Of a DNA stretch of 64,000 nucleotides, positions 5,680 to 62,419 are shown in pieces (position 1 is the first letter of the stretch; every line of letters begins with the position of its first letter). The notes under the pieces were generated by a model, which saw only the letters and a list, made by a program, of their open reading frames with translations, did not search any database and was not told where the DNA came from. The translations under genes were made by a program, and so were the position numbers. The stretch is from Octopus vulgaris (taxonomy: Eukaryota): assembly GCA_951406725.2 (NCBI GenBank), contig OX597835.1, forward strand, positions 32,426,001 through 32,490,000, written 5' to 3'.

Positions 5680-6447
<768 letters not shown>

Positions 6448-9431: not shown

Positions 9432-9529
<98 letters not shown>

Positions 9530-9574
9530 TATATACATATATATATATATATAGATATATATATATATATATAT

Positions 9575-9771
9575 ATTTATTATATAGAAGGAGCTTCTAC
9601 AGGACTAGTACTGTTTCATTCAAGAGAAATCTTCAGGAAGCTTCCTGAAGATTTCTCTTGAATGAAACAGTACTAGTCTGTAGAAGCTCCTTCTATATAA
9701 TAAATTAATTTTACTCTGCTATGTATTGAGTACCTTACTTACTGTGGTTAACCCCGAATCAACCCGGGACC

Positions 9772-9773
<2 letters not shown>
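9575..9773. mobile_element. Foldback element with a hammerhead on each strand plus a 68-bp unique tail, inserted in (TA)n
   Basis: Spacer-less palindrome 9575-9705 (axis GAAG|CTTC at 9640/9641, one-base indel). Confidence 0.85.
9639..9688 (+). ncRNA. Type I hammerhead ribozyme motif (mirror copy on - strand at ~9592-9642)
   Basis: gcttc-CTGAAGA-t ttc tctt gaa t-GAAA-cag tactagt ctg-TA-gaagc: stems I, II and III can form; GUA cleavage triplet. Confidence 0.75.
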
Positions 9774-9843
<70 letters not shown>

Positions 9844-9856
9844 TATATATATATAT

Positions 9857-9904
<48 letters not shown>

Positions 9905-9905
<1 letters not shown>

Positions 9906-10394
9906 TAATAATAAATATTAGGGAATAAATCCAAACTTACAGGGAAAATCAGATTTAGGATTGAATCCAATTTTATAGTAAAATATTATATTATATTAAA
10001 TTAGAGATAAAACCACTATTAGGCAAATCATACAATGAAAAACTTAAGCCAATACATAAGATTATTTAATTTATATTATTTAAATATATAACAAAATTAT
10101 TTAAAATATTTAACTTGGCGAGGTTTAATCAATGAACTAAAATTTTGAATCAAAATTTTAGTTCATTGATTAAACCTCGCCAAGTTAAATATTTAAACCA
10201 CCTGATGAATGACTGTAACTCGAAAATTTAAAGAAATTAACAGCCATGAAACGATCGTAGTGTTATATTAATTATATGTTTTAAATAATTTTGTTATATA
10301 TTTAAATAATATAAATTAAATAATCTTATGTATTGGCTTAAGTTTTTCATTGTATGATTTGCCTAATAGTGGTTTTATCTCTAATTTAATATAA
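9905..10394. mobile_element. Foldback element (arms ~9991-10147 and 10150-10394) with a hammerhead in one arm, inserted in (TA)n
   Basis: Arms are reverse complements except for an ~80-nt segment present only in the right arm. A collapsed relative lies at ~46240-46302. Confidence 0.85.
10196..10264 (+). ncRNA. Type I hammerhead ribozyme motif
   Basis: cac-CTGATGA-atgactgt...acagccat-GAAA-cgatcg-TA-gtg; palindromic stem III (ACGATCGT). Confidence 0.75.
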
Positions 10395-10395
10395 C

Positions 10396-10518
<123 letters not shown>

Positions 10519-11050
10519 CATATATTTCGCCATGGCAAAATTTTCAGTCATGGTCAATGCGACGATCGCACGCTACACACCTTCCTTCCAAGCGCTGCTG
10601 TAAACAGCGAAAGTGAGCCCCAAAAAAACGTTAAAACTTAGTGCGCATGCACTGCAGAGTTCAAAGTCGACCTGTAACAAGCAGCTTTATTCTGCGTGCT
10701 TAAGTTTCGTTATCATTGCAACAGCCTGGATACTTACTGATCAGAACTCGCGCGCGTGCGTGTGTATGGGTGTGTGGGTGTGTATTATTGTTGCTGTTTA
10801 ACCAGTAAAACAGCTTGATTCGGTACCATGCAAATTTTCGTTTCGTAGGTCTTATAGACATCTAGCACGTCGGACTCAGCCACCTGAGCTCGACCAGGTT
10901 AGGTTTCCGTTAAGGTCCTGCGAATCTTGTTGCTTGAGTCCGACTCACATTAAACAGCACTATGTGTAATTCCTACTAAACGTATTCACTACCTTTTTAC
11001 CTCTTTATTCAATTTGTTCACTCATATATATATATATATATATGTAAATA

Positions 11051-11089
<39 letters not shown>

Positions 11090-11118
11090 TGTATATATAT
11101 ACATATATACATATATAC

Positions 11119-11165
<47 letters not shown>

Positions 11166-11283
11166 TACATATATATATACATATATATATATACATATAT
11201 ACATATATATATATACATATATACATATATATATATACATACATATATATATGTATATATGTATATATATATATGTATATATG

Positions 11284-11343
<60 letters not shown>

Positions 11344-19928: not shown

Positions 19929-19980
<52 letters not shown>

Positions 19981-21801: not shown

Positions 21802-21906
21802 ATGCCTCCCCAAAGCTTCTGTAACGCTAACATGTATAATGTCATAATTTTGGGGTTAGCCTTCATGTTCATCTTCACAGCATTCCAGACCACGTCCATG
21901 GTTCAG
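21802..21906 (+). CDS. MFSD11: UNC93-like MFS transporter MFSD11, coding exon 1
   Basis: MPPQSFCNANMYNVIILGLAFMFIFTAFQTTSMVQ matches the MFSD11 N-terminus (NIIILGVAFMFMFTAFQT); donor CAG|GTAAAA, phase 0. Confidence 0.93.
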
Positions 21907-26307: not shown

Positions 26308-27551
26308 ATTTGTTTGTCTGTATTTGTCCCTCCCAACATCACTTGACAACCGATGCTGGTGTGTCTACGTCCCCATAACGTAGCGTTTTGACAAAAGACA
26401 CCGATAGAATAAGTACTTGGCTTACAAAGAATAAATCCTGGGGTCGATTTGCTCGACTAAAGGTGGTGCTCCAGCATGGCCGCAATCAAATGACTGAAAC
26501 AAGTAAAAGAGTAAAGTGAAACTTGAAATTTTGAAACAATTGTGTAACCTATCAGTATGAATTGGTGCAGACCCATCAATTCTTCCACTTTTTTGTTTTT
26601 TACATTAAATTCCATTATAATCATAATTTACACTATAACAAGGGTATATTTTTTTCACTTTGTATCTTGTTTTAGTCATTGGACTGCAGCCATATTAGGG
26701 CACCGCCTTGACGAAATTTAATCAAACTAATCAACCCCAGTACTTATTATCATTTGACTGTGGCCATGCTGGAGCACCCCCTTTAGTCGAGCAAATCGAC
26801 CCCAGGACTTATTCTTTGTAAGCCTAGTACTTATTCTATCGGTCTCTTTTGCCGAACCGCTAAGTTACGGGGACGTAAACACACCAACATCGGTTGTCAA
26901 GCGATGTTGGGGGGGGGGGACACACACACACACATATATATACATATACATATATATGACGGGCTTCTTTCTGTTTCCGTCTACCAAATACTGGTACTTA
27001 CTGTACCAGTATCTTTTGCCGAATCTCTAAGTGACAGGGACATAAACATACCAACACCAGTTGACAAACACACACACACATACATATATACACACCATGG
27101 GTTTCTTTCAGTTTTCATCACGAAATTGACTTATAAGGCTTTGGTTAGCCTGAGGCTATAGTAGAAAACTCACTTGTCTAAGGTGCCATGCTGTGAAAGT
27201 GGCCCAGGAACCATGTGGTTGGTGGGGCACACTTGTGTAGTTATGCCTCATTTTCTTCCTCTTTAATAGTTTCTTTGTGGCTGTGACTATAACATGAACA
27301 GATGTCACCTTTTACTGTTCGGTCACATACTTCTTAAATATCAATAACATAGCTAAAAGTTATTATAAAAAGAGAGCAGCTGACTTAGTAAATACTAGGC
27401 TATCACATATAGCTTGTTTACCAACCACATGGTTCCGGGTACAGTCCCACTGCGTGGCACCTTGGGCATGTGTCTTCTACTATAGCCTCGGGCCGACCAA
27501 AGCCTTGTGAGTGGATTTGGTAGACGGAAACTGAAAGAAGCCCATCGTATA

Positions 27552-30817: not shown

Positions 30818-31169
30818 TACGACGGGCTTCTTTCAGTTTCCGTCTACCAAATCCACTCACAAGGCTTTGGTCGGCCCAAGGCTAAAGTAGAAGACACATG
30901 CCCAAGTGCTTTCCTTCTTTTTTTTTTTTGCCAAACCTTAATTAGGGAAGAAATGACAACACTTTCAAAAGGTGTATTCTTTTTTTCCTTTATTCTGTTA
31001 CATGTTTCAGTCATTTGACTGTGGCCATGCTGGAGCACTGCTTTAAAGAAATTGACACCACAACTTAGTCTTTGTAAGCCTAGTACTTATTCTGTTAGTC
31101 TCTTTTGCAGGTACATAAACACACCACTACACAAAGGCACACACATATGAATATATGTCGAGCGTGATC

Positions 31170-31221
<52 letters not shown>

Positions 31222-31224
31222 CAT

Positions 31225-31411
31225 AGTTAATCCAAACATGAAAACACAAGAATGCGAGGACGTGGAACAAGTATAGTGTTATTGGACGCTCAGGAAAAAA
31301 GTAAAGGGTTTAACGTTTCGAGCAGAGCTCTTCGTCAGAAACATAGGAAAAGGAAAGATCCAAAGAAGGGAAGACAGAGGTAAAAAAAATCACCAACGGT
31401 ACACACGTGGT

Positions 31412-31413
<2 letters not shown>
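31225..31413 (-). mobile_element. Hammerhead element family H1 (intact core at 31308-31342)
   Basis: Minus strand gttt-CTGACGA-a gagc tct gctc-GAAA-cg-TT-aaac; minimal palindromic stem III (ACGT); flanked by (TA)n/(CA)n. Confidence 0.8.
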
Positions 31414-31462
<49 letters not shown>

Positions 31463-32210
31463 CATGATCATTACCTGCGTCGCCTTACTTGCACTTGGAT
31501 TGGAGTCGGGTGCAGCCATCTGGTTCACCAGACCTCAGTTAAATCGACCATGCTAGCATGGAAAGCGGGTGTCAAATGATGATAATGATATACAACAAGC
31601 TTCTTTCAGTTTCTGTCTACCAAATCCACTTACAAGGCTTTAGTCTGCCTGAGGATATAGTGGAAGGTGCCACACACTGTGACTGAACCTGGAATCAAGT
31701 GGATGGGAAGCAAGCGTCGTAACCACACAGCCACACCTCTATGAGTTTGTTTTGTACTTTATTTCTTTTTTTTTTCTTTCCTTTTATGTGGAAGTTAGCA
31801 GGTTCAAATATCCGAAACAGTAGCAGGGACTCATGAATCAGGCAACAAATTGAGTCAACCACCAAAAAGAGGGAAACCGGAAGAAGTCTCTCCATTAGGG
31901 TTCTGCACAGTTTCCTCTCTACCAAATTTTTCTTAACAATAAGAGGCATGCATTGCATTCCATCTTGACCCATGCAAACATGAGAAACTGAGCTCTAAAA
32001 CTGTGATACTCTTTTACTTGTTTCAGTCATTTGACTGCGGCCATGCTGGAGCACCGCCTTTAGTTCAGCAAATCGACCCCGGGACTTATTCTTTGTAAGC
32101 CTAGTACTTATTCTATCGGTCTCTTTTGCCGAACTGCTAAGTTATGGGGATGTAAACACACCAGCATCGGTTGTCAAGTGATGTTGGGGGGTACAAACAC
32201 TGACACACAA

Positions 32211-33497: not shown

Positions 33498-34113
33498 TAT
33501 ATATATATATATATGTTTATATAGTTGAAAGAGAGTAAGATATATATATCTTGATGCAGTTTCTTTCCCATCAGAAAACCTGAAATAAAACCCTGTGTAG
33601 GCCTTAACCAAAATTGCTGTATTTTATTCAAAATCAATGATATACTTCCTGACCACAAAAATGAAATATGCTATGACCTTCGTTCAAATTGAACTTACAG
33701 ATCAACAAATTGATTTTTTTCTATACTGTTACATATGATAGAATATTTTGGCACATTTTAATCACCCTTGTATTGTCGTCGTCATTTTACTGTCCTACTT
33801 TCTGTACATGAAATTTAGCAAGGCAGATTTTCTACTGTCAGATGCCCTAAGTGTCCCCAACCCTTGATTCCGTGTAAGGTAATATTTCTGTATGGCTGGA
33901 CATATTCTTTTACTTCTTTCAGTTATTTGACTGTGGCCATGCTGGAGCACTGCCTTTTTAGTCAAACAAGTTGCCCCCAGAACTTATTCTTTGTAAGCCT
34001 ATTACTTATTCTATCGGTTTCTTTTACCAAATCTCTTAGTTACAGGAATGTAAACACACCAATATCAGTGTCAAGCGATGGTGGTAGGGGATAAACACAC
34101 ACACACACACACA

Positions 34114-34153
<40 letters not shown>

Positions 34154-34155
<2 letters not shown>

Positions 34156-34403
34156 CTGGTGGCATGTGTAAAAAGATTCGAGCGAGGTCGTTGCCAGTAC
34201 CACCTGACTGGCCCCCATGTCAGTGGCACATAAAAAGCACCCACTACGCTCTCAGAGTGGTTGGCATTAGGAAGTGCATGCAGCTGTAGAAAATCTGCCA
34301 AATCAATATTAGAGCCTGGTGCAGCCATCTGGTTCGCCAGACCTAGTCAAAATCGTCCAACCCATGCTAGCATGGAAAGCGGACGTTAAATGATGATGAT
34401 GAT
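34154..34403 (+). mobile_element. Non-autonomous element with RTE-like 3' tail ending (GAT)n (other copies 45312-45810 -, 47546-47990 -, 48200-48893 +, 50195-50340 +, 58730-59092 +)
   Basis: Shared CCAACCCATGCTAGCATGGAAAGCGGACGTTAAAxGATGATGAT tail; internal tandem GTGGCACGTAAAAAGCACC repeats. The RTE link is inference. Confidence 0.7.
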
Positions 34404-34404
34404 A

Positions 34405-34451
<47 letters not shown>

Positions 34452-34778
34452 CAATTTAAAAATAAGATAAAATCTTCATAAGAATTTATCAAATAATCAG
34501 CATGAAAAACCTCATAAGAGAAAAAAATCCACCAATTTTTTCACTTAAATATATTTATTTATATTATATAGATGGCATTATTACACATAAATGCCACACG
34601 CTAGGAGGGACTCTTAAAGTCAAAACTACTAAAATAAATAAAAATATCGTACTGAATGCAACTCTCAAAGCAAGTCATTTAAAAACAGAATTCAGCTGCA
34701 GATCACTGTGATTTCATAATCAGTGCAGTGGTGTGCACTCTTTACTCGTCAGTGCAAGCATAATTCAAGATTTATAAT
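34452..34778 (-). mobile_element. ~330-bp hammerhead-bearing element between (TA)n tracts
   Basis: Unique block bounded by (TA)n on both sides, containing the motif at 34695-34759. Confidence 0.7.
34695..34759 (-). ncRNA. Type I hammerhead ribozyme motif
   Basis: tgca-CTGACGA-gtaa agagtgca cacca ctgcact gattat-GAAA-tcac a gtga-TC-tgca; all three stems pair; AUC triplet. Confidence 0.8.
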
Positions 34779-34797
34779 ATATATATATATATATATA

Positions 34798-35880
34798 CCA
34801 TTATCAATAATAACAAAGGGTGAAATTAATTAATTAAGAAGTAATCAGTAATTTCACCAAGTAGAATTTGGCATGAAAAGGACCATTTCATTGTAAGTTT
34901 AAGTAATACTATATAATTAGGGTTCAGCAACGATTTGCTTCACCACACACCGAAGTTTAGAAATAGCAGTCAAAAAATCTTAGCTATTCCTTCTACTTTA
35001 AAGGGAGTTCCCAGAAAAACCAAAGCACTTGAAAAGAAACCACGCAGGCAAAAGGGAAAAAAATGACGAAAATCATTCTATATTAGGTTACCTACGGATG
35101 CGCGTTTCGGAATTGAGTCAGTATAAAGCATAAATAATAAATAATTATACCTTACCCGACAATTTTCGTCTCTTCAGCGTAGGATTCCTCAATTATACCA
35201 TTTCATGGTAAGTTTAATCAATACTATATAATTAGGGTTCAGCAACGATTTGCTTCACCACACACCAAAGTTTAGAAATAGCAGTCAAAAAATCTTAGCT
35301 ATTCCTTCTACTTTAAAGGTCCTTTTCATGCCGAATTCTACTTGGTGAAATTACTGATTACTTCTTAATTAATTTCACCCTTGTTATTATTGATAATGGT
35401 ATTTTTCTCCCAGAAAAAAACTGTAGCATCTTACTTTGGCAACACGCTGGAGGGCGAGGGAGGATGACTTACTCTCATTCATTTTTTGAATTTGGCGGCA
35501 CTAGCACGGAATATGATCTCTCTGATACCGTTAGGTGAAGTGATGGTTTCCAGTGCCTTCAAATTTAATATGCAATTATTAATAATTGAGGTACAATTAT
35601 TTATAATTGAGGAATCCTACGCTGAAGAGACGAAAATAGTCGGGTAAGGTATAATTATTTATTATTTATGCTTTATACTGACTCAATTCCGAAACGCGCG
35701 TCCGTAGGTAACCTAATATAGAATGATTTTCGTCATTTTTTTCCCTTTTGTCTGCGTGGTTTCTTTTCAAGTGCTTTGGTTTTTCTGGGAACTCCCTTTA
35801 AAGTAGAAGGATTTTTTGACTGCTATTTCTAAACTTTGGTGTGTGGTGAAGCAAATCATTGCTGAACCCTAATTATATAG
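34798..35880. mobile_element. Rearranged foldback element with two inverted hammerhead copies, inserted in (TA)n
   Basis: ~34908-35197 is inverted against ~35602-35882; 34884-35002 is duplicated directly at 35198-35317; 34798-34885 is inverted at 35318-35400. Confidence 0.8.
35616..35708 (+). ncRNA. Type I hammerhead ribozyme motif with expanded stem II (inverted copy at 35091-35183 -)
   Basis: cctacg-CTGAAGA-[62 nt]-GAAA-cgcgc-GTC-cgtagg: perfect 6-bp stem I, GUC triplet, palindromic ACGCGCGT stem III. Confidence 0.75.
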
Positions 35881-36042
35881 TATATATATATATATATATA
35901 TATATAGATCAATAAATTGTGGGGTTGTGTTGACCGCACGTAGAGAAATGATAAGCAAGGAAAAATTGTAAAAATGCAGAATGCTCGATTGAAAGAAAAT
36001 TTTAATGAAATGAGAAAATGAAAAAATATATAAATATATATT

Positions 36043-36084
36043 TATTCAAACCGGTTTTCGTCATAGTTTGACTTATCAAGAATA
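36043..36084 (-). ncRNA. PLE terminal hammerhead motif, U3-A8 core variant
   Basis: tattc-TTGATAA-gtc aaactat gac-GAAA-accggt-TT-gaata. Confidence 0.6.
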
Positions 36085-36719
36085 GTTAGGTGAAAAAGTT
36101 TTTTAAAAATGAGAAAGGGGAAAAAAGTTGCATTGTTTTTTGCAAAAGAATAATAATAAATATGTATAAAAATTAAAAAATAAGTACTCCGATACATTGT
36201 GAGTTCGTTGTGTATCTTGAGTTTAATGATTGTTCACGAAAAAATTACCTTGAGGTATTAGGATCCAATGGGATTAAGGCCATGTGTTGTTTGGTTTAAT
36301 TAAGGATGTTGGCAAAACAGGAAGTAGTAGTAATTGTGGTTCTTCAGTTCCTGTGTTGTGAATAAGGGGAGACAACTCTTTTGAGTTCTTCAATAAAGGC
36401 TGCTGATAAACCCCAAATTATAAAATTGTCATTTTAGCTTCATTTGCATTATCTTTTTTATATAATTGTTTGTTAACTTTCAGATTTTAACACTTTATTT
36501 ATATTATTTTCTAATTATATAAATTTGCATAGACAATTACATTTCAGATTGTTATATCATAAATAATAAAGATGATGGTAATAACAAAAATAGTAAAAAT
36601 GATATTTAAAGAATATAAGTTTTAGCTTGAAGTGATGAATCTATGGAATCCTTATATATTTGTGTGAGTCCATCCATGAAGAATGAGGTAGAAAAGGGAA
36701 GTTTGATCAACAAGGAGTT

Positions 36720-38930
36720 TGTATATTAAGTTGTGTTTAGAATTATTCAATAAAGAGATTCTCCTTGTTAATTCTCTCCTGTGTGGTGATCCCGTCTTTA
36801 CATTGGTAGAAGGGGAATATATAGAATTTGGGGTTTAAGTCTTTAGCGCATGAGTCTATGTGGTCACTCAGTGGAATTTGTCGGTATTCCGGGAGATTTA
36901 TTTGTTCTTTATGCACCGCTACTCGTTTACGTAACGGGAGACTCGTTTGTCCAACATAATTATGTTGGCAACCAGCGCATGTGAGAACGTAGATAAGGTT
37001 CTCGGTGGAACAGGAGAAGTTAGTCTTGATTTTAAACTTCGTACCTTGTTTGAAGGTAAATTCAGAGCCTTCAAGTAGGAGGGGGCAGGTACCACAGTTT
37101 GGGCGTGCACATTTTTTTTACTGCTGGGGGTGGATGTGGTGTGTGAAGTTTGGTATTTGTCAAGAGTTTTTTTAAAGATTTGTGTTGCCTTTTACATTTG
37201 AGGATTTTGTGTGTATTTATGTTTTTCATTTTTGGGTCTGTTGACAGTAGACTGAGGTTTTGTATGATTGTGGTGTATGCTTCGATATTTTGGGGTTGTG
37301 GGTGGAAATGTATGGAAGTATTTTGAGGTTGTGTGTGGTGTTAGGTTGGGTAGTTTTCAGTGTAATGTTATCTAGTTCTTTGGCGCGTTTTATTCCATAC
37401 TCTATAAGGGTGGAGGGATATTGGCGTTGTAGTAGTGTTTTTTTGAGGTCTTGAAGGCGTATTTCTCATGTTTTTGGATCCGAGACAATGGTGCATACCC
37501 TTTTAGCCAAATTGAAAGGGATATTTGTCTTGGTGTGTTTTGGGTGGCATGAACTAAAGAGGAGGTATTGTTGTGAGTCTGTGGGTTTGTGGTAGATGTC
37601 TGTTATGATTTGGTTCTTAGGTGTTTTTATAATTAGGAGATCAAGGAATGGGAGATGATGTTTGCTTAATTCCATAGTGAGTTGGATGTTGGGATGTATG
37701 TTGTTTAGTATGGTTTTGAATTCCAGGAGTTTTTCATAAGGTTCTTTCCATATGATGAAACAATCATCCAAATACCTTTTCCAGTTTTCCTTTAGGTAGG
37801 TGTGGAAAACATGTCCAAATTTCTGGCGTGATATTTCATAGAGTGATAGTTCGAAGAAACCATTATGAGGTTCGCAAGGACTGGTGCAGCCTTGGTACCC
37901 ATCGCAATACCACATTTTTGACGGTAGTGTGTGTCGTCGAAGAGAAAAAAATTGTTGGTCAGAATGAACTTGAGAGATTCTGTAATAAAAGTCTTGTTAA
38001 TGCGGTCAGGGAATGTCTCTGGGTGTTTTTCTAGCCAGAAGTCAATTGCCTCTATACCATATTCATGTGGGATGTTGGTGTAGAGGTTGATGACATCAAA
38101 AGATACCAGGAGCGCCTCCTCGTTAACTGTTTTCGGGAGGTGTTTGAGCATGTCCAGATCATCCCTAATGAAACTTTTGATGTGGGTAAGGAAAGGTTTC
38201 AAAAGGATGTCTAGGAAATTACTCAGGCGGTGTGTTTCACAGGAGGTGCCAGCCACGATGGGCCTTAGTTTTAGGTCCTCCGGTGCTTTGATATTGATGT
38301 GGATGTCAGTGGAGAGTTTGCAGGCTTCGGTGATGTATTTGTTTTTATGGATTTTAGGAAGGCCATAAAAAAGGCTGGGCTTGCATTTGAAATTGGTGAT
38401 ATAATCCCTTTCTTTTTCTGTGAGTCCCTGACCGTGTTGGCGTATGAGTGTGGTGAGGTTTCTGATTGTTTTTTGCTGTTTATAGTTGTTAATAACCTCA
38501 TAGAAAATGTTATTGTTAAGCATGGAAAGCACTAGGTGTTTATAAAATTCCGTGTCCATAAGGACCACAGAGCTCCCTTTATCAGCTTCTTTAATGGTAA
38601 GGTTTTTATCCAGTTGTATGTCACGTAGGTTTTCCCATTCTTCCTTACTGAAATTGGATTTTACCTTGGTTTTGCTTGGGGTAAAGGGGAGACTCTGGAT
38701 GTGTTTGCAAAAATCGTTCAGTGTTTTATTTCTCCCTTTTGATGGTAGGAAGTTGCTTTTATTTCTGATCAATGAATCGTCCCCATTGTTGATATCTGTC
38801 AAGGCTTCTGTTAGACATCATCCTTGACCTCCGGGGGGTTGGGTGTTCTTGGGGTGGGTGTGAATTTCAAACCTCTTGCTAGGATGTTGATTTGGGTTGG
38901 TGTCAGTGTTTTGATGGAGAGGTTTATAAT
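36720..38930 (-). pseudogene. PLE reverse transcriptase / GIY-YIG endonuclease pseudogene
   Basis: INLSIKTLT..ARGLKFTPTP, FYGLPKIHK, LRPIVA, LVSFDVINLYTNIP, YRQKCGIAMG, WKRYLDDCF, LPFLDL, IYHKPT, CARPNCGTC, NLIYVLTCAGCQHNYVGQT; several frameshifts and a deletion near 38810. Confidence 0.93.
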
Positions 38931-40031
38931 TTTTGTTTTCTTATTTTGGGTCTGTGTTAGCGGTGGTGTTTGTATTTTTCCCCTCTGTCTAAAAAATGGT
39001 TGTTGAGGTGAGGGGTGTATTGTCTGTTAAAGTTCTGGTTGTATGTGTAGGAGTGTTTTTGGGTGGGGAGGTTGGAGGGGTGTAGGTAGTTGTAGTATTT
39101 ATGTTGGTATCGGATGCGATGGTGTAAGGTTTTGTGAGAAATGCGATGGGTTTGTGGGTGTGTGTATGGTAGATTGTATGGGGGGATGTAGTTGTGGTGA
39201 TTGGGTTCGTGTGGGATGTGAGGGTTTGGAGATCTGTAGGAAATGTGGTAGGAATGTGGTTGTTGGATGGGTGGACTATAAGGGGTTCGTTGGGTGGGTA
39301 TTATATGTATCGGTGTGGGTAGGATGCCTTGTTTGTTATTAGTGTGAGGGAGGGGAGTATTGAGGGGGGGGGATAATTCCTAGTGTATGGGAGGTTCTTG
39401 ATGGTTCTTGTCGGTGGGGGAGGGGTGTTAGAGTGACTGGAAAACCAGGTTTTGTGGTGGGTCTTGTTTGAGACGTTTCGGGGAGGAAAAGGTTTTTTTA
39501 TATGGTTGGGGGAGGTTGTGTCCTGTTTGGAGAGTATGTGTATTTGAGGTGCAGTTTGGGGTGGTGTTTATGGGGTACAGTGGAAGTCTGTGTTGTGGGT
39601 ACTTTTATGAATGGGTTTTTGGATTTATGGTTTAATATGAATTGTGTTTCATAGTTGAGGAAGAAATCTTTGTTGTTTTCCCAGCGTTTAAGGGAGGTTC
39701 GTTCTTCCTTTTCACATTCATCTTTCCATAGTTTAATAACAAGTTTGAGGGGCTGTTCGTTGGTGTGTGAGGTTAGTTCTAGAAGTATCTCATCATCGAT
39801 TTTTGTGTATTTTTGTTCGTGGTTTTGTGCTCTGAGTTTTAGAAGTTCTACTTCAGTTTTCATTTTTTCCAATGTTAGTTTTTCTCTTAGGGAGCGTTGT
39901 TTTTCAGGCTCGTCTGGGATGTGTTTGATTTGGAATTTTCGGGGTAGTATGATAGGGGAGGAGTTTAACCATTTGTTGTAAATTTCAGCTTTGTTTTGGT
40001 TTTTGAGCATGTTCCAGAAGAGAAGTTTTCT

Positions 40032-40066
<35 letters not shown>

Positions 40067-40976
40067 TTATATAGTTTTCTATATATATATATATATATTT
40101 ATGACAGGCTTGTTTCAGTTTCTGTATATCAGATCCACTCACAAAGCTTTGCTCAGCCTGAGACTATAGTAGAAGGCACTTGCCTAGGGTGCTACACAGT
40201 GGGCCTGAACCCAGAACGATGTGGTTGTGAATCAAGCTTCTTATCACACAGCCATGCCTGCACCTATCATAAAATATTAGAATGAAATGACACTGCTTGT
40301 ATGACAGTGACTTTCATTTACAGCTACCTTGCAACATCAAGACAAAATGTCACACAAACACCCATACAAATATAGGTGTGGATGTGTGGTAAGCAGCTCA
40401 CTTTCCCAACAGCATGGTTGCAGGTTCAGTTTCATTGCATGGTGTTTTGGGTAATACTATAACAGTGGGCTGACCAAAACCTTATGAATGGATTTGGTAG
40501 ATGGAAACTGAAAGAAGGCCATTGGAAACCTATATTTGTGTGTGTGTGTGTCTTTGTGCCTGCATTTGTCCCCTACCACTGCTTTACAACTGATGATGGT
40601 GTGTTTTTGTCCCCCTGACTTAAAAGTTTGACAAAGAGGATGTTTGATTTAGAAGTTTGACAAACATAATACACACGTATAAATATACGTGTGTATTATG
40701 TTAGAAAATATCTCTGTATATGTAGCTATGTGTTTTCTTTGTATGTATAAAGTTAAAATTATCCAGCTAAGAATCTCTGTAATTCTGTTTGTCCTAACTT
40801 GAATTTCTAGTTTCTTACAATTTCTTACTTCCTTTATCAGACTAAACAATCGCAAAGTCTTCCAAACTATTTACTTTCATGGTTTCCTTTCCATTTTGTT
40901 TTTTATTTTATATTTTACAGTTTTTAAAAATATATTTTTAATCATTTATTCATTTATTTGTTTTTGTTCTTTCCAG

Positions 40977-41032
40977 AAAACCGTTCTTCACAGTGCTTCA
41001 AACACCACAAAGCAAGGCGATGGTTACGTAAG
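40977..41032 (+). CDS. MFSD11: MFSD11 coding exon 2
   Basis: ttccag|KTVLHSASNTTKQGDGYV(S)|gtagac; phase 0 to 2; matches QTVIRS..GSGYTS. Confidence 0.88.
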
Positions 41033-41850: not shown

Positions 41851-41958
41851 TCTTGGTGTTATTTACACAACGTTCGCCCTCTGTAACTGGATCGCTCCTG
41901 TTATTATATTCTTGTGTGGCACCAAGATCTCAATGATAGTGGGTGGTGTCACATATCT
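41851..41958 (+). CDS. MFSD11: MFSD11 coding exon 3
   Basis: ctag|(S)LGVIYTTFALCNWIAPVIIFLCGTKISMIVGGVTY(L)|gtgagt. Confidence 0.92.
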
Positions 41959-42842
41959 GTGAGTATAACTATGTATTTATATTATCGTCATAATCATCCA
42001 TCGTAATCATCATCATTGTAATCACCACCACAACCATCATCATTTTGGTACCACCATCATCATCATTGTCATCATCATATCATCATTACTCATCATCATC
42101 ACCATTATCAACACCATCATCATTATCACATCACCACAATCATCATTGTCATCATCATCATCATATATCTCCTCTTTATTCTGTTATTCACAACTACACA
42201 TCACCATATCTTCATATCCTTTCCTTCACGTCCTATATGTCGTACCTGTTTACGGCCAAGTAAACTGGAACTTCAGAGTGAAGTGTACCATTTTACAAAC
42301 ATGGCATAACAGCTTTGCCAATATTTGAACCTCTGATGCTTTAGTTTGTGGATTGCAGCAATGTGATAAGCAGAGCCAACACAGACCAATGGGAGGCCCC
42401 TTACTTGGTCACTCAGCCTGTTGATAAAAGCACCCAAAATTTCCCCTAATCACAGTTCAAAAAGGTCACCTTGTACTAGGTTGGAAAGTAAGTCTTCTCA
42501 CATTTCAAGAGAGGGAATAAACAAATGTTTTATTGGTATTAATTGATATATATTTCATTACTACCCACAAGGGGCTAAACACAGAGGGGACAAACAAAGA
42601 CCTACATCGACCCCAGTGTGTAACTGGTAGTTAATTTATCGACCCCGAAAGTATGAAAGGCAAAGTCAACCTCAGCGGAATTTGAACTCAGAATGTAACG
42701 AGAGATGAAATACGGCTACGCACTTTGCCCGGCCTGCTAACGTTTCTGCCAGCTTGCTGCCTTTGTTGGTACTAATTGATATATTTAATTAAGATAATAT
42801 TTCTCCTCGTTATTCATAACATAATTGCATCTACAGTTCTAT

Positions 42843-44140: not shown

Positions 44141-46294
44141 CTACTATATACAGCAGTGTAACTTTATTGGGTATACCAATTTTACATATGAAACTCCATC
44201 CTGGAAGTTGCTACCTACAAGTCCTTAGTGGTACATTACAGTCCCCGACAGAATGGTCATATTGCTGTACTACTAATGATAGAGTCTACTAAATCAGGGA
44301 AAACCTAGAGCTAAAAAACAATAGCTCACATGGTTCATTGTCTTTCAACATCAAAATTAGACAAATAAATCTCTTTTTATCTTAATGTTTAATCAAAAGG
44401 AAGTGTCAGTGACCTCAAGAGCTAATTCCGTGTTTAAAGTTCAGTGGTGGTTCAAATACAAATTGTTGGAGATAATAAATATAATTTGAAAAATCCACTA
44501 TACACAATCAAGTTAGTATTTAATTAAAATAGTCATCTGTGTATTATACTTAATGTATACACACCATTGATAGGCCATTGCCTGCAGTATTTGTCCTGTG
44601 ATAGTATCTCTTATGGATGCGTTGTATTAAAACCACCATGAATATCCGAGAGATGCAAGAGTGGCTGTGTGGTGAGTGGCTTGCTTCCCAACCACATGGC
44701 TTCGAGTTCAGTCCCACTGTGTAGCACCTTGGGCAAGTGTCTTCTATTATAGCCTCGAGCCGTCCAGGGCCTTGTGAGTGGATTTGGTAGACGGAAACTG
44801 AAGAAAGCCCGTTGTATATATGTGTGTATATATATGTGTGTGTGTTTGTGTGTGTGTGTTTGTCAGCATCACTTGACAACCGATGCTGGTGTGTTTGCGT
44901 CCCCATAACTAAGCAGTTCGACAAAAGAGACCGATAGAGTAAGTACTAAGTTTACAAAGAATAAGTCCTGGGTCGATTTGTTTGACTAAAGGCGGTGCTC
45001 CAGTATGGCTGCAGTCACATGACTGAAACAAGTAAAAGAGAGGGAGAGAGATTGATTCATCCCAGCTGTAGGCTGAAAGAATGCTAGATGCATTGATTGG
45101 CTGAGCGTATGCACCAATGCAAAAGGACTGAAATGCACTGGAAGCTCTCATTGGTCACAGCTGGAATGACTTTTCATCTGTCTCTGATATTTATTGTATT
45201 TTTAGTCCATAAGCAAGTCCATAAGAAATGTTATTTCAGGCCAAAATAGTGCAACAACTGGCCTATCAACAATGTATATACATTATGTATGATATATAGA
45301 TGGCTGCCATCATTATCATCATCATCATCATCATCGTTTAATGTCCGTTTTCCATGCTAGCATGGGTTGGACGTTTCGACCGGGGTCTGGGAAGCCAGGA
45401 GGCTGCACCAGGCTCCAGTCTGATCTGGCAGTGTTTCTACAGCTAGATGCCCTTCCTAACGTGAGTGTAGTGGGTGCTTTGTACATGCCACCGGCACAGG
45501 TGCCAGGGGAGGCTGGCAACGGCCACGATTGTTTGGTGCCTTTTACATGCCACCGACACGGAAGCCAGTCAAGGCGGCGCTACCTTTCACTCTGTGAGTG
45601 TAGTGGGTGCTTTTAATGTGCCACCGACACAAGAGCCAGAGGAGACTGGCAACGGCCATGATCGGTTGGTGCTTTTTACATGTCACCAGCACGGAAGCCA
45701 GCCAAGGTTGCGCTGGCATTGGCCACATTCGGATGGTGCTTTTTACGTGCCACCAGCACAGGTATTACAACTACAGTTTCCATTTGATTTTTATTTTGAT
45801 GTTGAAGCACATATATATAGGCACAGGAGTGGCTGTGTGGTAAGTAGCTTGTCTACCAACCACATGGTTCCGGGTTCAGTCTCACTGCGTGGCACCTTGG
45901 GCAAGTGTCTTCTACTATAGCCTTGGGCCGACCAAAGCCTTGTGAGTGGATTTGGTAGCCGGAAACTGAAAGAAGCCCGTCGTATATATATGTATATATA
46001 TATATGTGTGCGTGTGTGTGTGTTTATATGTCTGTGTTTGTCCCCTAGCATTGCTTGACAACCGATGCTGGTGTGTTTATGTCCTCGTTACTTGGCGGTT
46101 CAGCGAAGGAGACCGATAGAATAAGTACTGGGCTTACAAAAGAATAAGTCCCGGGGTCGAGTTGCTCGATTAAAGGCTGTGCTCCAGCATGGCCGCAGTC
46201 AAATGACTGAAACAAGTAACAGAGTATATATATATGTATATATTATATTAATTAGAGACAAATTTTTCCCTGTAAATTTGGATTTATTCCCTGA

Positions 46295-46338
<44 letters not shown>

Positions 46339-46727
46339 GATACAGATATTCTATAATTATAAACATAACTACGATTAGGGGCCAGCCAACTGCTCCGCCA
46401 CGCACCGAATCCAGAAGTAGGAGCCAAAATTCCTTTCTACTACCGTAAAGGAGTTTTCAGAAGAGTTGGTTGAAAATCAGTTATACAATGGCACTCGATC
46501 GCATACATATTTAATCCTAACACTCTCGAATTTATATTTTGAAATGCTGCACTAAAGATAAGAAATAAGTAAATAAATATAACCTTACTTTAATCTCAAG
46601 TTGTGTGGATTCGTTATTTTTTTCTTTTTGCCTACGTAAAAAATGTTTTACTGTCTGGGAGATCTTTTACGGTAGTAGAAAAATACCATTCATCAATTAC
46701 ATTTTTGTTAAATGTTTTATTTTCCAG

Positions 46728-46807: not shown

Positions 46808-48946
46808 GTAATTGTTTAATCCTATATTAACCATTCAATGTTGATCTGGAACATTGGCAACCAAAAGTTTCTATGTTGTTACTTTTTTCTTCTTCACTCT
46901 TTTGTTACCAAATGCCAGTTGAAATACATTGTCTTTGTTTTAATTACTCATTAAAGTAATAGGCGCAGGAGTGGCTGTGTGGTAAGTAGCTTGCTTACCA
47001 ACCACATGGTTCCGGGTTCAGTCCCACTGCGTGGCACCTTGGGCAAGTGTCTTCCACTATAGCCTCGGGCTGACCAAAGCCTTGTGAGTGGATTTTGTTG
47101 ACGGAAACTGAAAGAAGCCCGTCATATATATATGTGTGTGGGTGTGTGTGTTTGTTCCCCCCAACATTGCTTGACAACCGATGGTGCTGTGTTTGCATCC
47201 CCGTAACTTAGCGGTTCGGCAAGAGAGACCGATAGAATAAGTACTAGGCTTACAAAAATAAGTTCTGAGGTCGATTTGCTCGACTAAAGGTGGTGCTCCA
47301 GCATGGCCACTGTCAAATGACTGAAACAAAAAGAAGAATAGAAGAATAAAAGTAATGAAATAATGAAATAATTTTCTCCATGGGTGCAAGCATGGCAAAC
47401 GGGTTAAGAACCTTGCTTTGCAACCATGTGGTTTCAGGTTCAATCCTCCTGCATAACACCTAGGGCCAGTGTCTTCTGTTTTAGCCACAGACTGACCAAA
47501 GCCTTGTGATCAAATTTGGTAGATAGATGCTGTGGCAGTCTGTTGTCATCATCATCATCATTTAACGTCCGCTTTCCATGCTAGCATGGGTTGGACAATT
47601 TGACTGAGGGCTGGCGAACCAGATGGCTGCACAAGGCTCCAATCTGGATCTGGCAGAGTTTCTGCAGCTGGATGCCCTTCCTAACGCCAACCACTCCAAG
47701 AGTGTAGTGGGTGCTTTTATGTGCCACCGGCACGAGGGCCAGTCTGGCGGCCATGCACAAATGGTGTTTTTTTTACGTGCCACCTGCACAGGAGTCAGTC
47801 CAGTGGCACTGACAACGACCTCACTCAAATGTTTTGTTCATGTGCCACCAGCACAAGTGCCAGTAAGGTGACGCTGGTAACGATCACGCTCAAATGGTGC
47901 TTTTTACATGCCACTGGCACGGAAGCCAGACCGCTGCTGTGAGTGTGATCCTGTTCAGATGGTGTAGGATCACTGCCAGAGCAGCTGTCTGTTGTATATA
48001 TATATATGTATGTGATTCTGTGTACGAAATACACTCACAAAGGATTATTTGGCCCAGAGTTATAGTAGAAATCACTTGCTGAAGGGGCCACGCTGTGGAA
48101 CTGAACATAAAACTACATGGCTGGGAAACAAGCTTCATAACCACCCAGCTACACCTGCACCTACATCATTTATTTATGTAATGTCTGTATGATTTACCAT
48201 TTTAAGCCTGACCTTCGAACATTGGTCTTCACCGAGGCAATGATTAGTGACCGGGACCTCTAGAACAATGCTGTGCTTGTGAAGACTTAGCAAGTGCAAG
48301 TGAGACCATAACCTTGTGACTTATGCCAGGGGTGTAACCAGTCCACTTATGTATACCTTTCCTTCATTGGACACTAAACTCTGCTTGTGAAGACCTGTTG
48401 AGGCAAGTGAAATCGAAATCAATTTCGATGATAGGCATCCATTGCTAGTGGAGCGCTAAGAGTACCATACAAGCGAGATCGTTGCCAGAGCAACAAGCTG
48501 GCCTCTGTACTGATGGCATGTTAAACACACCATTCGAGCGTGATCATTACCTGCATCACCTTACTGGCACTTGTGCTGGTGGCACGTGAGAAAACATTCG
48601 AGTGAAGTTGTTGCCAGTGCCGCTGGACTGGCTTCTGTGCAGGTGGCACATAAAAAGCACCATTTGAGCGTGGCCATTGCCAGTACCGCCTAACTGGCCC
48701 TCATGCTGGTGGCACATAAAAGCACCCACTACACTCTCAGAGCAGTTGGCGTTAGGAAGGGCACCCAGCTGTTGAAACTCTGCCAGATCAGACTGGAGCC
48801 TGGTGCAGCCATCTTGTTAGCCAGACCTCAGTCAAATCGTCCAATCCAAGCTAACATGGAAAGCGGACGTTAAACGATGATGATGATGATGATCTGAAAA
48901 TAATACAGAAACTAATAATAATTTCTTTTGAACTTCGTCATTTCAG

Positions 48947-49043
48947 TTATTTGGACAGCACAAGGGGCATTTCTCACCAACAACTCGAACTCAGAGACAA
49001 TGTCTAGGAACAGTGGAATATTTTGGGCTCTTTTACAGTGCAG
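48947..49043 (+). CDS. MFSD11: MFSD11 coding exon 5
   Basis: tttcag|(V)IWTAQGAFLTNNSNSETMSRNSGIFWALLQC(S)|gtaagt; hallmark WTAQG and RNSGIFWALLQ. Confidence 0.96.
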
Positions 49044-49953
49044 GTAAGTTTGGCATGGATGGCTGCACAGAGACGTGTTTGTGTGAGTGTGTGTATATAT
49101 ATCCAGGTTTAGGTGTAATAAGATATGTATTGATGTGTGTACGTGTATGGATGTGAACATATTTCAGTATATGTGTGTTGTGTGTATACAGATATATGTA
49201 TAATGAGGTGTATATAGGTGCAGATGTAAACATATAGATTTTAGATTTTCTACCATTGAACCAAAGTGACCCTCCAAATTTTTTCCATCCATTTTAGTAG
49301 TTGAGGGAACCTGTGGAAGAGGTAGACCTGGGATGAGGTGGTGAAGGATGAGTGAAAATACCTAAAGCTGCACGAGGCCCCAGCAGGGGGTGGGGTGGGG
49401 GTGGCAAACCCTGTTTTCACCACAACTTTCTTGCACTCTTTCTTCCTGTTTCTGTGGTACTTGTACTTCAAAGCACCAGCCTTGTCCCACTCTGTGTCAC
49501 GCTGAATATCTCTGGGAACTACGTTAAGGGTACATGTGTCTGTGGAGTGCTCAGCCACTTGCATGTTAATTTCACAAGCAGGTTCCGTTGACTGGATCAA
49601 CTGGAACCCTCATCTTTGTAACCGACAGAGTGCCACAATATATATATATGTGGAGGCGCAATGGTCCAGTGGTTAGGGCAGCGAACTCGCGGTCGTAGGA
49701 TCTCGGTTTCGATTCCCAGGCTGGGCGTTGTGAGTGTTTATTGAGCAAAAACACCTAAAAAGCTCCACGAGGCTCCAGCAGGGGGTGGTGATCCCTGCTG
49801 TACTCTTTCGCCACTCTTTCTCCCACTCTTTCTTCAGTTGGCCTGCTCGCTTAGCCAGCGGGGTGGCGTCATTCGAAGGCTGAAAACAATGCGAACGCAT
49901 TGTGACCAGCAATGTGTAACAACATCTGATGGTCTGGTCGGTCACGTGACATG

Positions 49954-49992
<39 letters not shown>

Positions 49993-60365: not shown

Positions 60366-60627
60366 GTGAGAGCAATTTTCTGAAATTATTTCCCAAAAAA
60401 AAAAATATATATATATATATATGTATATATTTTCTCATGTTTTTTTATTAATTATCTAATAGGCGTAGGAGTGGCTGTGTGGATTGGTAGCATGCTTACC
60501 AACCACATGGTTCCGGGTTCAGTCCCACTGCGTGGCGCCTTGGGCAAGTGTTTTCTACTATAGCCTCTGGCCGACCAAAGCCTTGTAAGTGGATTTGGTA
60601 GACAGAAACTGAAAGAAGCCCATCGTA

Positions 60628-60673
<46 letters not shown>

Positions 60674-60675
<2 letters not shown>

Positions 60676-61252
60676 AATTATTACATTATATAAAAGGGCT
60701 TAGTAAAATAAATTACTTCGCCGCATACTGAACTCATTAGAAATAGCAGCCAAAAAACTTTTTTTAAAGCTATTTCTAATACTTAAAGAAAATCTCTCTC
60801 ATATATAGCGTTTGCCTAATTCAACTCACAAAAGTTTGGGAGTAAGGACATTAAAAAATCAAATGCTAAGGTTATTTGAGTACGTACGTTTCAAGATTAG
60901 TCAAAACAACACTTCTAATAAGATAGAAGTGTTGTTTTGACTAATCTTGAAACGTACGTACTCAAATAACCTTAGCATTTGATTTTTTAATGTCCTTACT
61001 CCCAAACTTTTGTGAGTTGAATTAGGCAAACGCTATATATGAGAGAGATTTTCTTTAAGTATTAGAAATAGCTTTAAAAAGTTTTTTGGCTGCTATTTCT
61101 AATGAGTTCAGTATGCGGCGAAGTAATTTATTTTACTAAGCCCTTTTATATAATGTAATAATTTGAATTCGCCTTAAATGGTCCCTTTGCATACTGAACA
61201 CTTGGTGAAATTGATTAATAATTAATTAATTTTACCCTCAATTGTTGAAATT
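60674..61252. mobile_element. Near-perfect foldback element (~245-bp arms, 6-nt loop) with an 87-bp tail, inside the (TA)n of a family-A SINE (60461-61773)
   Basis: Arms 60674-60917 and 60924-61165; half-hammerhead GAAA-cgtacg-TA at 60949-60960; tail resembles 35318-35400. Confidence 0.88.
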
Positions 61253-61295
61253 ATATATATATACATATATACGATGGGCTTCTTTCACATTCATA

Positions 61296-61504
61296 ATGTG
61301 ACCGCGTGTGTACCGTTGGTGATTTTTTTTCCTCTGTCTTCCCTTCTTTGGATCTTTCCTTTTCCTATGTTTCTGACGAAGAGCTTCGCTCGAAACGTTA
61401 AATCCTTCTTTCCTTCCTTCCTGAGCGTCCAATAATACTATATTTGTTCCACGTCCTCGCGTTGTTGTGTTTTCTCTTTGTGTTTTCATGTTTGGATTAA
61501 CTTT
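61296..61504 (+). mobile_element. Hammerhead element family H1 (intact core at 61369-61403)
   Basis: gttt-CTGACGA-a gagc ttc gctc-GAAA-cg-TT-aaat. Confidence 0.82.
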
Positions 61505-61562
<58 letters not shown>

Positions 61563-62419
61563 GTGTGTCTGTGTTTGTCACTCCAACATTGCTTGACAAC
61601 CAATGCTGGTGTGTTTACATCCCTGTAACTTAGCGGTTCGGCAAAATGAGACCGATAGAATAAGTACTAGGCTTACAAAGAATAAGTCCTGGGGTCAATT
61701 TGCTTGACTAAATGTGGTGCTCCAGCATGGCCACAGTCAAATGACTGAAACAAGTAAAAGAGTGAAAAAGAGTAATAACCTTTTATTCTGTGAAATATGT
61801 CAGCATAGCTTTTTTTTTTTTTTAAGTTACTGCTCAGAGCTGCGGACATGCTGATGCACCGCCGTTGATGCACCGCTGATGCACTGCTTTGTAGATGGGA
61901 AGTATTTGTCTATGAGAAATTCTGTACACTATTGTTAATGTTTTCATTATTGATTCATATTTTAAGGTGGCGAGCTGGCACAATTATTAGCATACTTAGC
62001 GTTATTTTGCCCTTCGCTCTGTTCTGAGTTCAAATTCTGCTGAAGTCAACTTTGCCTTTCATCCTTCCTTGTGGGGTCAATAAATTAAATACCAGTTGAG
62101 TACTGGGGTCAGTGTAATCGACTAGTCCCCTTCCATCAAATTGCTGCCCTTGTGGCAAAATACGAAACCATCATTGATTCATATTTTAAGGCAGTGAACT
62201 GCTAGAATCTTTAGAAGGCCCGACCAAATGCTAAGTAGCCTTTTGTCCGGGTTCACTTTCTATGTTCAACTTCCAGCTTGGGTCAACTTTGCCTTTAAAA
62301 TAAGAACCAATGCCACTTAGAAGTATTTCTTCCAAATTTTTGTTCGGAGTTCAAATGTTCCTCCTCTCCTCAATTTTCTGGCTTTGATCCAAAATTTGAA
62401 TCAATCAATAAATCATCGT

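Follow-up and report, generated by a model that had tools for sequence, protein, structure and literature searches.

The reverse transcriptases (RTs) of Penelope-like elements (PLEs) are the sister group of telomerase. PLEs of the Neptune and Nematis types combine an RT with a CX2-5CxxC linker plus GIY-YIG as their C-terminal domain, and show a microsatellite bias, for which (TA)n is named in the case of the Naiads, while the linker is hypothesised to mediate the bias of Neptune (Craig et al. 2021, PMC8557442). 5' truncation is common in PLEs (PMC8969392). The pseudo-LTRs (pLTRs) of PLEs carry minimal type I hammerheads, which are expected to act as dimers via their palindromic helix III; a genome has numerous divergent families of them, mostly located apart from full PLEs (Cervera and de la Pena 2014, PMC4209133). 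Elements standing end to end with (TA)n between them are described from the modular SaTar arrays of plants, and the same paper cites a report of TA expansion after insertion for maize TAFTA (PMC5907723). Moreover, SINEs and LINEs disperse microsatellites, and Waldo, Mino, Kibi, Koshi, Dong and Micron insert into them (Grandi and An 2013, PMC3812793). The microsatellite bias of PLEs and arrays of transposons separated by TA have both been published before. In the parts of these papers used here, the account of Craig et al. contains neither SINE-borne targets nor mixed-family stacks, and Grandi and An treat the two halves of the process separately, with no chain leading from SINE-borne TA to PLE insertion.

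Here, we analysed a stretch of 64,000 nucleotides of Octopus vulgaris contig OX597835.1 (the window), in which a SINE in an intron of an animal gene has grown from about 0.4 to 6.4 kb by four later insertions into its internal TA run, one upon the other. The main locus (33904-40265) comprises 6362 bp, only about 415 bp of which are SINE sequence. An RTE-tail repeat lies between the SINE halves together with two PLE remnants that bear hammerheads and a PLE of 4.1 kb, which has RT and GIY-YIG but is broken; these inserts are set apart by (TA)n at 34.1-40.1 kb. The first-pass annotation had described a minus-strand SINE-A split around an RTE-tail element, two hammerhead elements and a 4-kb PLE with (TA)n between them, and our analysis confirmed this anatomy. 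The TA run next to the SINE head (40032-40099) contains a short local tandem duplication which includes the private end of that head.

Table. Features of the main locus in plus-strand order (SINE tail, microsatellite, RTE-tail repeat, H3, H2 complex, PLE, TA run, SINE head), followed by the other nested SINEs and stacks in the window.
Feature	Positions	Strand	Basis or remark
SINE-A tail (3' half), old copy	33904..34086	-	nhmmer model positions 2-183, E 9e-51; non-CpG divergence 0.125
SINE internal microsatellite, (CA)n then (TA)18	34087..34152	.	layout as in intact copies
RTE-tail repeat (label of the first-pass annotation), (TGA)n end	34153..34404	+	9-17% from 4 other copies
(TA)23 separator	34405..34451	.	
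H3, short PLE-type remnant, type I hammerhead motif (predicted)	34452..34776	-	descriptor match
(TA)10 separator	34777..34797	.	
H2, rearranged PLE pseudo-LTR-type piece	34798..35873	.	inverted arms and two hammerhead copies
(TA)13-16, common to H2 and PLE, tail-to-tail	35874..35906	.	
5'-truncated, broken endonuclease-containing PLE (predicted)	35907..40031	-	RT, linker, GIY-YIG
Imperfect TA run at PLE 5' junction	40032..40099	.	
SINE-A head (5' half), full length	40100..40265	-	nhmmer model positions 1-166, E 3e-49; non-CpG divergence 0.133
Second nested SINE-A, RTE-tail fragment in the middle, H1 at 31226-31415 (-)	30992..31738	-	paralogue comparison
Third nested SINE-A, foldback 60674-61251 (H2-related), H1 at 61290-61503	60461..61763	+	
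Stack outside SINE-A: foldback 9577-9774, hammerhead and foldback element 9900-10401, segment 10519-11023	9438..11341	.	
Stack at outer 3' edge of SINE-A: two PLE-type 3' ends tail-to-tail on (TA)19	46225..46700	.	

That tail and head belong to one SINE, as had been claimed, was borne out by several observations: both halves lie on the same strand, are complete up to the microsatellite and are equally diverged (about 13% from the consensus). None of 27 other aligned tails came as close to the divergence of this head, and head and tail divergence were correlated across 22 pairs (Spearman 0.51, p=0.016). We also considered that the halves might stem from two different SINE copies or from an assembly join at the TA runs. 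Orphan SINE-A halves are indeed frequent in the window (32 head and 33 tail matches, from which the 22 pairs were used), no consistent target-site duplication appeared across 11 copies and none was informative at the main locus, and no contig bridging this locus was listed in any of four runs (out of 24), whose tables were swamped by repeats, so that its arrangement rests on the assembly of the window. Yet the agreement in strand, age and completeness, the correlation over the pairs, the single-copy depth of the unique flanks and a left-flank contig extending into the SINE tail in three of the four runs make either origin very improbable. In the most distant run, depths were 10-80 in the bins covering the centre of H2 and the 3' UTR of the PLE, versus about 51 for the flanks, which would be compatible with absence there but is no evidence of it. 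SINE-A may resemble the octopus tRNA-derived SINEs of Ohshima and Okada (1994); ARAGORN found no tRNA in the window, and a pattern scan of metagenome contigs for SINE-A gave no matches.

Judged by its sequence, the largest insert is an endonuclease-containing PLE with both RT and GIY-YIG. An upstream open frame (40031-39501), for which only weak Atlas leads were obtained (0.76 and 0.75), precedes a region at about 38954-36725 with RT, a C-x4-C-x2-C linker and GIY-YIG, which is broken by four or more frameshifts and several stops, and a 3' UTR of about 0.8 kb. Pfam RVT_1 matched the fragment weakly and below the cut-off (E 0.0011); of 2557 candidate proteins, 410 matched, headed by RT proteins of about 750 aa with up to 60% identity, many of which have GIY-YIG. 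In one homologue (P0004), both RVT_1 and GIY-YIG scored above cut-off. A profile of 50 homologues placed GIY-YIG at 37000-36725 (E 4e-33), and its motif and the CCHH residues are recognisable by eye at the C-terminus. The cysteine pattern upstream of it conforms to the CX2-5CxxC linker and recurs in 68 of 120 homologues. Because other copies of the family continue past position ~40022, this copy is 5'-truncated. It has no upstream pseudo-LTR, no repeat of its 3' region exists elsewhere in the window, and the only further trace of PLE coding sequence there was a weak match at 2976-3134 (E 0.055). Compared with six high-depth contigs, we summed 48 differences in about 1770 positions; the private letters of this copy were unseen in a same-species run, which is not evidence, since contigs drop rare variants. 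By its domain layout, the element resembles the Neptune and Nematis PLEs, as far as described in PMC8557442, in having the linker and GIY-YIG; 5' truncation, pieces in inverted or tandem order and the microsatellite bias are also shared, whereas an upstream pLTR is lacking here. A decayed hammerhead-like stretch at 36086-36036, inside the 3' UTR, was recognised by eye, with helices I and II, a palindromic helix III and two core changes, and gave no descriptor match.

Hammerhead descriptors matched six times in the window and once more under a second setting, whereas 40 shuffles gave means of only 0.05 and 0.025, respectively. With core, helix I and palindromic helix III present, H1, H2 and H3 are predicted to be minimal type I hammerheads. 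They share the core, short helix I and palindromic helix III of the pLTR hammerheads as presented in PMC4209133, and deviate from them in the weakly closed helix II of H2 and the two core changes of the PLE's own motif. Rfam reported no hammerhead at gathering score and folding z-scores were only -2.0 to 0.04, so these two approaches alone gave the motifs no support. The core of H3 (34752-34701) has a near-palindromic helix III, and its 3' end enters (TA)n; H3 occurs once in the window, and its summed depth in the runs was far above that of the flanks. H2 consists of inverted arms (34988-35197 and 35602-35811, differing at 3 of 210 positions) plus a direct duplication, with the 3' ends pointing outward, and has one minimal hammerhead copy with an intact core (plus strand, from 35622) and one with an altered cleavage triplet (minus strand, 35184-35090). 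Its 3' end is related to the foldback near 61 kb and to 46337-46560. An assignment of H2 as pLTR of the adjacent PLE was rejected, the two sequences having no similarity. H1 (about 200 bp) is present in four copies in the window, and all four as well as H3 are monomers; the tandem hammerhead repeats expected of retrozymes are absent. As short non-coding hammerhead elements, H1 and H3 are similar to the non-LTR retrozymes, for which descent from PLEs is proposed in the available accounts (PMC7229834; bioRxiv 10.64898/2026.07.22.740005), but they are solitary monomers with minimal motifs rather than tandem arrays. The RTE-tail repeat, whose 3' end is present in eight copies in the window, is neither a PLE nor TA-specific, which does not support the proposed targeting by (TA)n-specific PLE-type elements. 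Where measured, the PLE-type inserts (H2 by its arms, the PLE by its ~1-4% divergence from high-depth contigs) are far younger (~1-4%) than their host SINE (~13% non-CpG). Older SINE copies were not significantly more often nested (3 vs. 18 copies, p=0.33).

All 14 of the listed PLE-type 3' ends run into (TA)n; among these, all four H1 copies and all seven hammerhead matches were found without using TA. The other stacks show how such ends relate to the SINEs. The nesting of a foldback and an H1 near 61 kb was found as previously described (60461-61773 in the annotation, 60461-61763 here), and the 5' junction of this H1 contains an inverted copy of the same SINE's head end. At 30990-31740, for which the same nesting had been proposed, the elements are nested, but it is the RTE-tail fragment that H1 splits, not the TA run of the SINE itself, so that this locus is not an uninterrupted array. 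This H1 is flanked by a 14-bp duplication (31160-31173 and 31460-31473), the right copy of which has only one TA, and carries (TA)23 at its 3' end and (TC)7(TA)8(TG)9 at its 5' end. A paralogue at 48536 keeps the uninterrupted sequence with no microsatellite at the insertion site, which indicates that the (TA)23 arrived with H1; the case for element-borne TA comes from this one site, where later slippage could also have lengthened the run. Stacks of the same build are also formed outside SINE interiors, at 9.4-11.3 kb with (TA)n before, between and after all three members, and at 46.2-46.7 kb.

The annotation had further proposed an ecological coupling, in which SINEs supply targets to PLEs. 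A SINE copy serving as a passive target that was hit later agrees with our data, whereas a preference over other (TA)n does not. SINE-A interiors make up 16 of the 32 (TA)n loci in the window, and the insertion density in SINE-internal (TA)n was no higher than in free (TA)n (3/16 vs. 3/13 occupied, p=1.0), with little power; for the window, this is the outcome that the annotation itself had named as refuting its proposal. Five counting schemes gave odds ratios of 0.48-1.8 (all p>=0.63), including one generous to coupling (6/21 vs. 2/11, p=0.68); the loci were classed by hand and the counts are tiny, so a several-fold preference is still compatible with them. Left out were the pair at 26750-26991 (a 36-nt head fragment, no TA run of at least 10 nt) and five short tail fragments. 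Two ambiguous cases, a 40-bp insert (20154-20193) and one H1 (6448-6606), were each counted in either way. Because the separators were probably made largely by the insertions themselves, a length-normalised comparison of occupancy would be confounded. Under a true coupling, PLEs would find better targets in SINE-A interiors than in other (TA)n, perhaps because the (TA)n(TG)n context is asymmetric there or the Pol III chromatin is open, and SINE amplification would drive their spread. This is suggested by three of seven PLE-type loci lying inside SINE-A copies (binomial p=3.5e-4, with these copies covering about 1.3 of 58 kb), by two more touching a SINE-A half or edge, and by the 60-kb H1 junction formed against a SINE head end. 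Likewise, the insert shares the SINE orientation at all four loci where a SINE head stands beside H1, H3 or PLE (chance 1 in 16), an agreement not expected from a palindromic TA target by itself. Nevertheless, the excess per locus is missing in all five countings, the H1 at 31 kb inserted without using the TA of the SINE, and at 49.6-50.7 kb an RTE-tail repeat and a second SINE-like family, both non-PLE, lie between TA runs with no SINE-A. We therefore consider such a coupling unlikely; the window lends it no support beyond supply, and the stack has the look of ordinary insertion by TA-seeking elements, not of a special partnership with the SINE.

Our preferred explanation, which we regard as probable, is a TA target that renews itself, with SINE-A as one passive host and seed among several. 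Starting from the observed anatomy, age order and TA at PLE-type 3' ends, we infer nicking, priming and the source of the TA as follows. An old SINE-A would have inserted, bringing a short (TA)n(TG)n run, followed by the RTE-tail repeat and, much later, by three unrelated PLE-type elements entering TA sequence there. The GIY-YIG nuclease of a PLE would nick at TA, and the 3' end of its RNA, ending in or slipping into UA repeats, would anneal and be reverse transcribed. With every insertion, (TA)n would remain at the newly formed 3' junction and frequently also at the 5' junction, and the fresh (TA)n would offer the next target, bringing unrelated elements end to end. The SINE would contribute an abundant TA seed (about half of the TA loci) that is per locus no better than free TA. 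The stacks outside SINE interiors and one insertion at a non-microsatellite TA were observed. The linker of this PLE, hypothesised to mediate microsatellite bias, and the TA expansion reported for TAFTA agree with this explanation.

Alternatively, target duplication and slippage of TA already present in the host may account for all separators, the PLEs making none; they would then need an existing microsatellite, and SINE-borne TA would be the main limiting resource even without any preference. The share of SINE-A among the TA loci, the published microsatellite bias (reported for PLEs in PMC8557442) and intact, insert-free SINE-A copies reaching TA runs of 25-42 bp agree with this. The single TA in the right copy of the 31-kb duplication and the H1 at 60.0 kb, which ends in only (TA)5 and has no TA run on its 5' side, do not, and we judge this explanation to be quite unlikely.

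Compared with the SaTars as characterised in PMC5907723, the loci at 34.1-40.1 and 9.4-11.3 kb likewise consist of unrelated, uninterrupted elements end to end with (TA)n separators. SaTars belong to the Mutator-like DNA transposons and have terminal inverted repeats, whereas the members here carry RT, GIY-YIG or hammerheads, one array lies inside a SINE, and one H1 interrupts another element. A more speculative reading, to which we give limited credence, is that PLE RTs write or carry dinucleotide runs at the junctions, such that hammerhead-bearing PLE remnants produce much of the genomic (TA)n and renew their targets in a feedback loop of SINE, microsatellite and PLE. On this reading, one H1 insertion would have turned a single TA step into (TA)23 on one side and (TC)7(TA)8(TG)9 on the other, the remnants would build the SaTar-like mixed arrays, and SINE-A would seed about half of the sites and perhaps fix the orientation of the inserts.

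The locus represents a clear animal, retroelement case of TA-separated transposon stacking. For repeat annotation, it means that SINE halves 6 kb apart can be a single insertion and that seemingly free (TA)n may be PLE tails, which alters how target preference is to be normalised. A strong coupling of SINEs and PLEs, if true, would be of interest to transposon ecologists. If element-borne TA holds genome-wide, it would link the birth of microsatellites to a telomerase-related RT and provide a test of how PLEs prime.

The main locus consists of a tail (3' half) and a head (5' half) of SINE-A, an abundant SINE family, with four inserts between them that are separated by (TA)n (table). The first-pass annotation had drawn it as a single SINE opened by nested elements, and this feature proved to be real and well described. 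A profile search yielded 32 SINE-A heads and 33 tails in the window, from which 22 copies were paired by hand. The middle of intact copies is a (TA)n(TG)n of 26–115 bp; the halves at the main locus lie 6013 bp apart. Both are on the minus strand, complete up to the microsatellite and equally diverged. Of 18 uninterrupted copies in the comparison, 13 diverge by only 0.03–0.06. None of the 27 other aligned tails fits the main-locus head as closely as its own tail, and head and tail divergence are correlated across the 22 pairs (Spearman 0.51, p = 0.016). One interrupted SINE-A copy is the best reading, as had been claimed, and two SINE copies or an assembly mis-join are very improbable. Because no consistent target-site duplication was found among 11 SINE-A copies, duplications cannot decide this question. 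Outside contigs were compared from 4 of 24 sequencing runs: the unique flanks were present at the depth of single-copy sequence, and one run matched them exactly, two differed by 1–2% and the fourth by ~9%. A left-flank contig extends into the SINE tail in three of the four runs, and none of the contigs listed for them bridges the locus. A metagenome scan for the SINE-A pattern gave no matches.

Features of the main locus, its surroundings and comparable loci (window positions)
Feature	Position	Strand	Remarks
SINE-A tail	33904-34086	-	complete up to microsatellite; non-CpG divergence 0.125
Insert 1, RTE-tail repeat (putative RTE)	34153-34404	+	abundant, ends in (TGA)n
Insert 2, H3	34452-34776	-	type I hammerhead motif
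Insert 3, H2	34798-35873		rearranged; inverted arms, direct duplication, 3' ends pointing outward
Insert 4, PLE	35907-40031	-	homologues; RT, linker, GIY-YIG
SINE-A head	40100-40265	-	complete up to microsatellite; non-CpG divergence 0.133
UNC-93 exons	41852-41959, 48946-49041	+	Pfam match
Candidate exons, same UNC-93 family gene	~21877-21985, 40977-41032	+	read by eye; former without Pfam match
Same-orientation loci	6448-6795, 30992-31738, 33904-40265, 60461-61763		H1, H3 or PLE vs adjacent SINE-A head
Stack	9438-11341		foldback, hammerhead element, anonymous segment, each bounded by TA
Stack	46225-46700		two PLE-type ends tail-to-tail, outer edge of a SINE-A
Stack of non-PLE repeats	49638-50662		neither PLE nor SINE-A
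Near-perfect foldbacks, (TA)n-bounded	9577-9704, 9987-10398, 60674-61165		arm mismatches 0/63, 3/127, 0/242

The window is repeat-rich animal DNA, and its SINE suggests an octopus as host. The UNC-93 exons, together with the candidates read by eye, place the main locus probably inside a 19-kb intron of an UNC-93 family gene, to which its SINE and long PLE (Penelope-like element) are probably antisense. An intact-core hammerhead of H2 (35622-35708, +) lies on the sense strand of this presumed intron.

The RTE-tail insert differs by 9–17% from four other copies, and only 3 of 8 RTE-tail 3' ends in the window abut a TA run, so this repeat is not TA-specific. H2 is, like H1 and H3, a hammerhead-bearing PLE-type piece; a minimal hammerhead whose helix III is palindromic occurs in it twice, and 3 of 210 positions differ between its inverted arms. 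The 3' end of H2 has relatives in the foldback at 60.7 kb and in 46337-46560 but none in the adjoining PLE, and the idea that H2 is the pLTR of that PLE was rejected for want of similarity. The PLE has 410 homologues of ~750 aa, the named ones coming mainly from bivalves or from bins of bivalve symbionts, and its RT, C-x4-C-x2-C linker and GIY-YIG span ~38954 to 36725. The copy is 5'-truncated, at least four frameshifts and a number of stop codons disrupt its coding region, and its 3' UTR contains a decayed hammerhead-like stretch. Upstream of the RT frame, an open frame of ~170 aa (39501-40031, -) gave only weak Atlas leads and no Pfam match. Against six high-depth contigs, the PLE shows 48 differences in ~1770 positions (summed over contigs), which together with the H2 arms indicates that both of these inserts postdate the SINE by far. 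The SINE was thus a passive target of later insertions, and the composite did not move as a unit.

A hammerhead descriptor gave six matches in the window and one more under a second setting, against means of 0.05 and 0.025 over 40 shuffles. An Rfam search of the window returned no hammerhead match, and the folding energies of the motifs are unremarkable. Both are expected, since minimal hammerheads, described from pLTRs (PMC4209133), act as dimers; we did not count this as support.

All 14 PLE-type 3' ends listed abut (TA)n, and those of H1 (4/4) and the hammerhead matches (7/7) were identified independently of TA. On manual grouping, the 68 TA tracts of at least 10 bp fell into 32 loci: paired SINE-A copies contain 16 of them, 13 are free and 3 adjoin orphan halves. 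PLE-type elements occupy 3/16 SINE-internal versus 3/13 free loci (Fisher p = 1.0; little power), and with four alternative countings the odds ratio ranged from 0.48 to 1.8 (p at least 0.63 in each), so the higher insertion density proposed for SINE-internal (TA)n was not found in the window. Three of the seven PLE-type loci lie in SINE interiors, which make up ~1.3 of 58 kb (p = 3.5e-4 versus bulk DNA). SINE interiors are hot spots relative to bulk DNA, but no more so than any TA run, and the proposed SINE-PLE coupling is supported as a supply of TA only, not as a preference. The shared orientation of insert and SINE at all four loci with a SINE-A head beside H1, H3 or the PLE (chance 1 in 16) leans towards a true preference for the SINE, which we consider unlikely.

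At the 60-kb locus, the 5' junction of H1 (61252-61288) carries an inverted copy of the head end of the same, upstream SINE. This identifies the SINE's TA as the target there, in agreement with the first-pass annotation, and the inverted copy may be the trace of a cDNA that jumped to the target strand next to a palindromic TA run. At 31 kb, H1 and an RTE-tail fragment are nested as annotated, but H1 sits in that fragment, between two 14-bp copies differing at one position (31160-31473). The paralogue at 48536 has a single uninterrupted copy of this stretch with one TA step. Because this step is bare, the runs at the H1 junctions, (TA)23 at the 3' end and (TC)7(TA)8(TG)9 at the 5' end, came with or after its insertion; they appear new at both junctions of this one site, although later slippage may have lengthened them. 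This single site suggests that insertions both use and produce the (TA)n separators, so that normalisation by TA length is confounded. Dependence on pre-existing TA as supply alone is slightly less probable still than a SINE preference.

Stacks of the same build also form away from SINE-A interiors. The one at 49.6–50.7 kb consists of an RTE-tail fragment and two copies of another SINE-like family (49650-49953, 50365-50648), all three with (TA)n on either side; elsewhere, partial copies of this family are without TA flanks. Segment 10519-11023 (505 bp) is single-copy with long (TA)n at either side. At 19882-19995, inverted and tandem copies of the last 20–25 bases of a SINE-A flank a (TA)23 at its 3' end, and in another old SINE-A a 40-bp insert between two TA runs (20154-20193) is possibly a very short 5'-truncated element. 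At 5370-6795, an old SINE tail (+) and an oppositely oriented old head (-) enclose an H1 and a TA tract of 760 bp; this may be a fourth nested copy that was inverted locally. The SINE-A copy at 45810-46240 has a 9-bp TA-type repeat at both flanks, so SINE-A can itself insert at TA runs.

We consider it fairly probable that the PLE endonuclease nicks at TA, that RNA ending in UA or slipping primes there, and that every insertion would renew (TA)n, giving end-to-end arrays. A (TA)n bias is published for the PLE group Naiads, and a CX2-5CxxC linker has been proposed to contribute to microsatellite bias in Neptune (both PMC8557442). Likewise, unrelated plant transposons form TA-separated arrays, with TA expanding after insertion (PMC5907723), SINEs are treated as microsatellite sources alongside microsatellite-targeting elements (PMC3812793), and nested insertion hot spots are the subject of PMC2836564. 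A search of mostly open-access main texts found no publication on PLE insertion into SINE-internal TA. The main locus adds a further case of behaviour already known, and a more interesting lead than the coupling is a possible renewal of the TA targets by the elements themselves.
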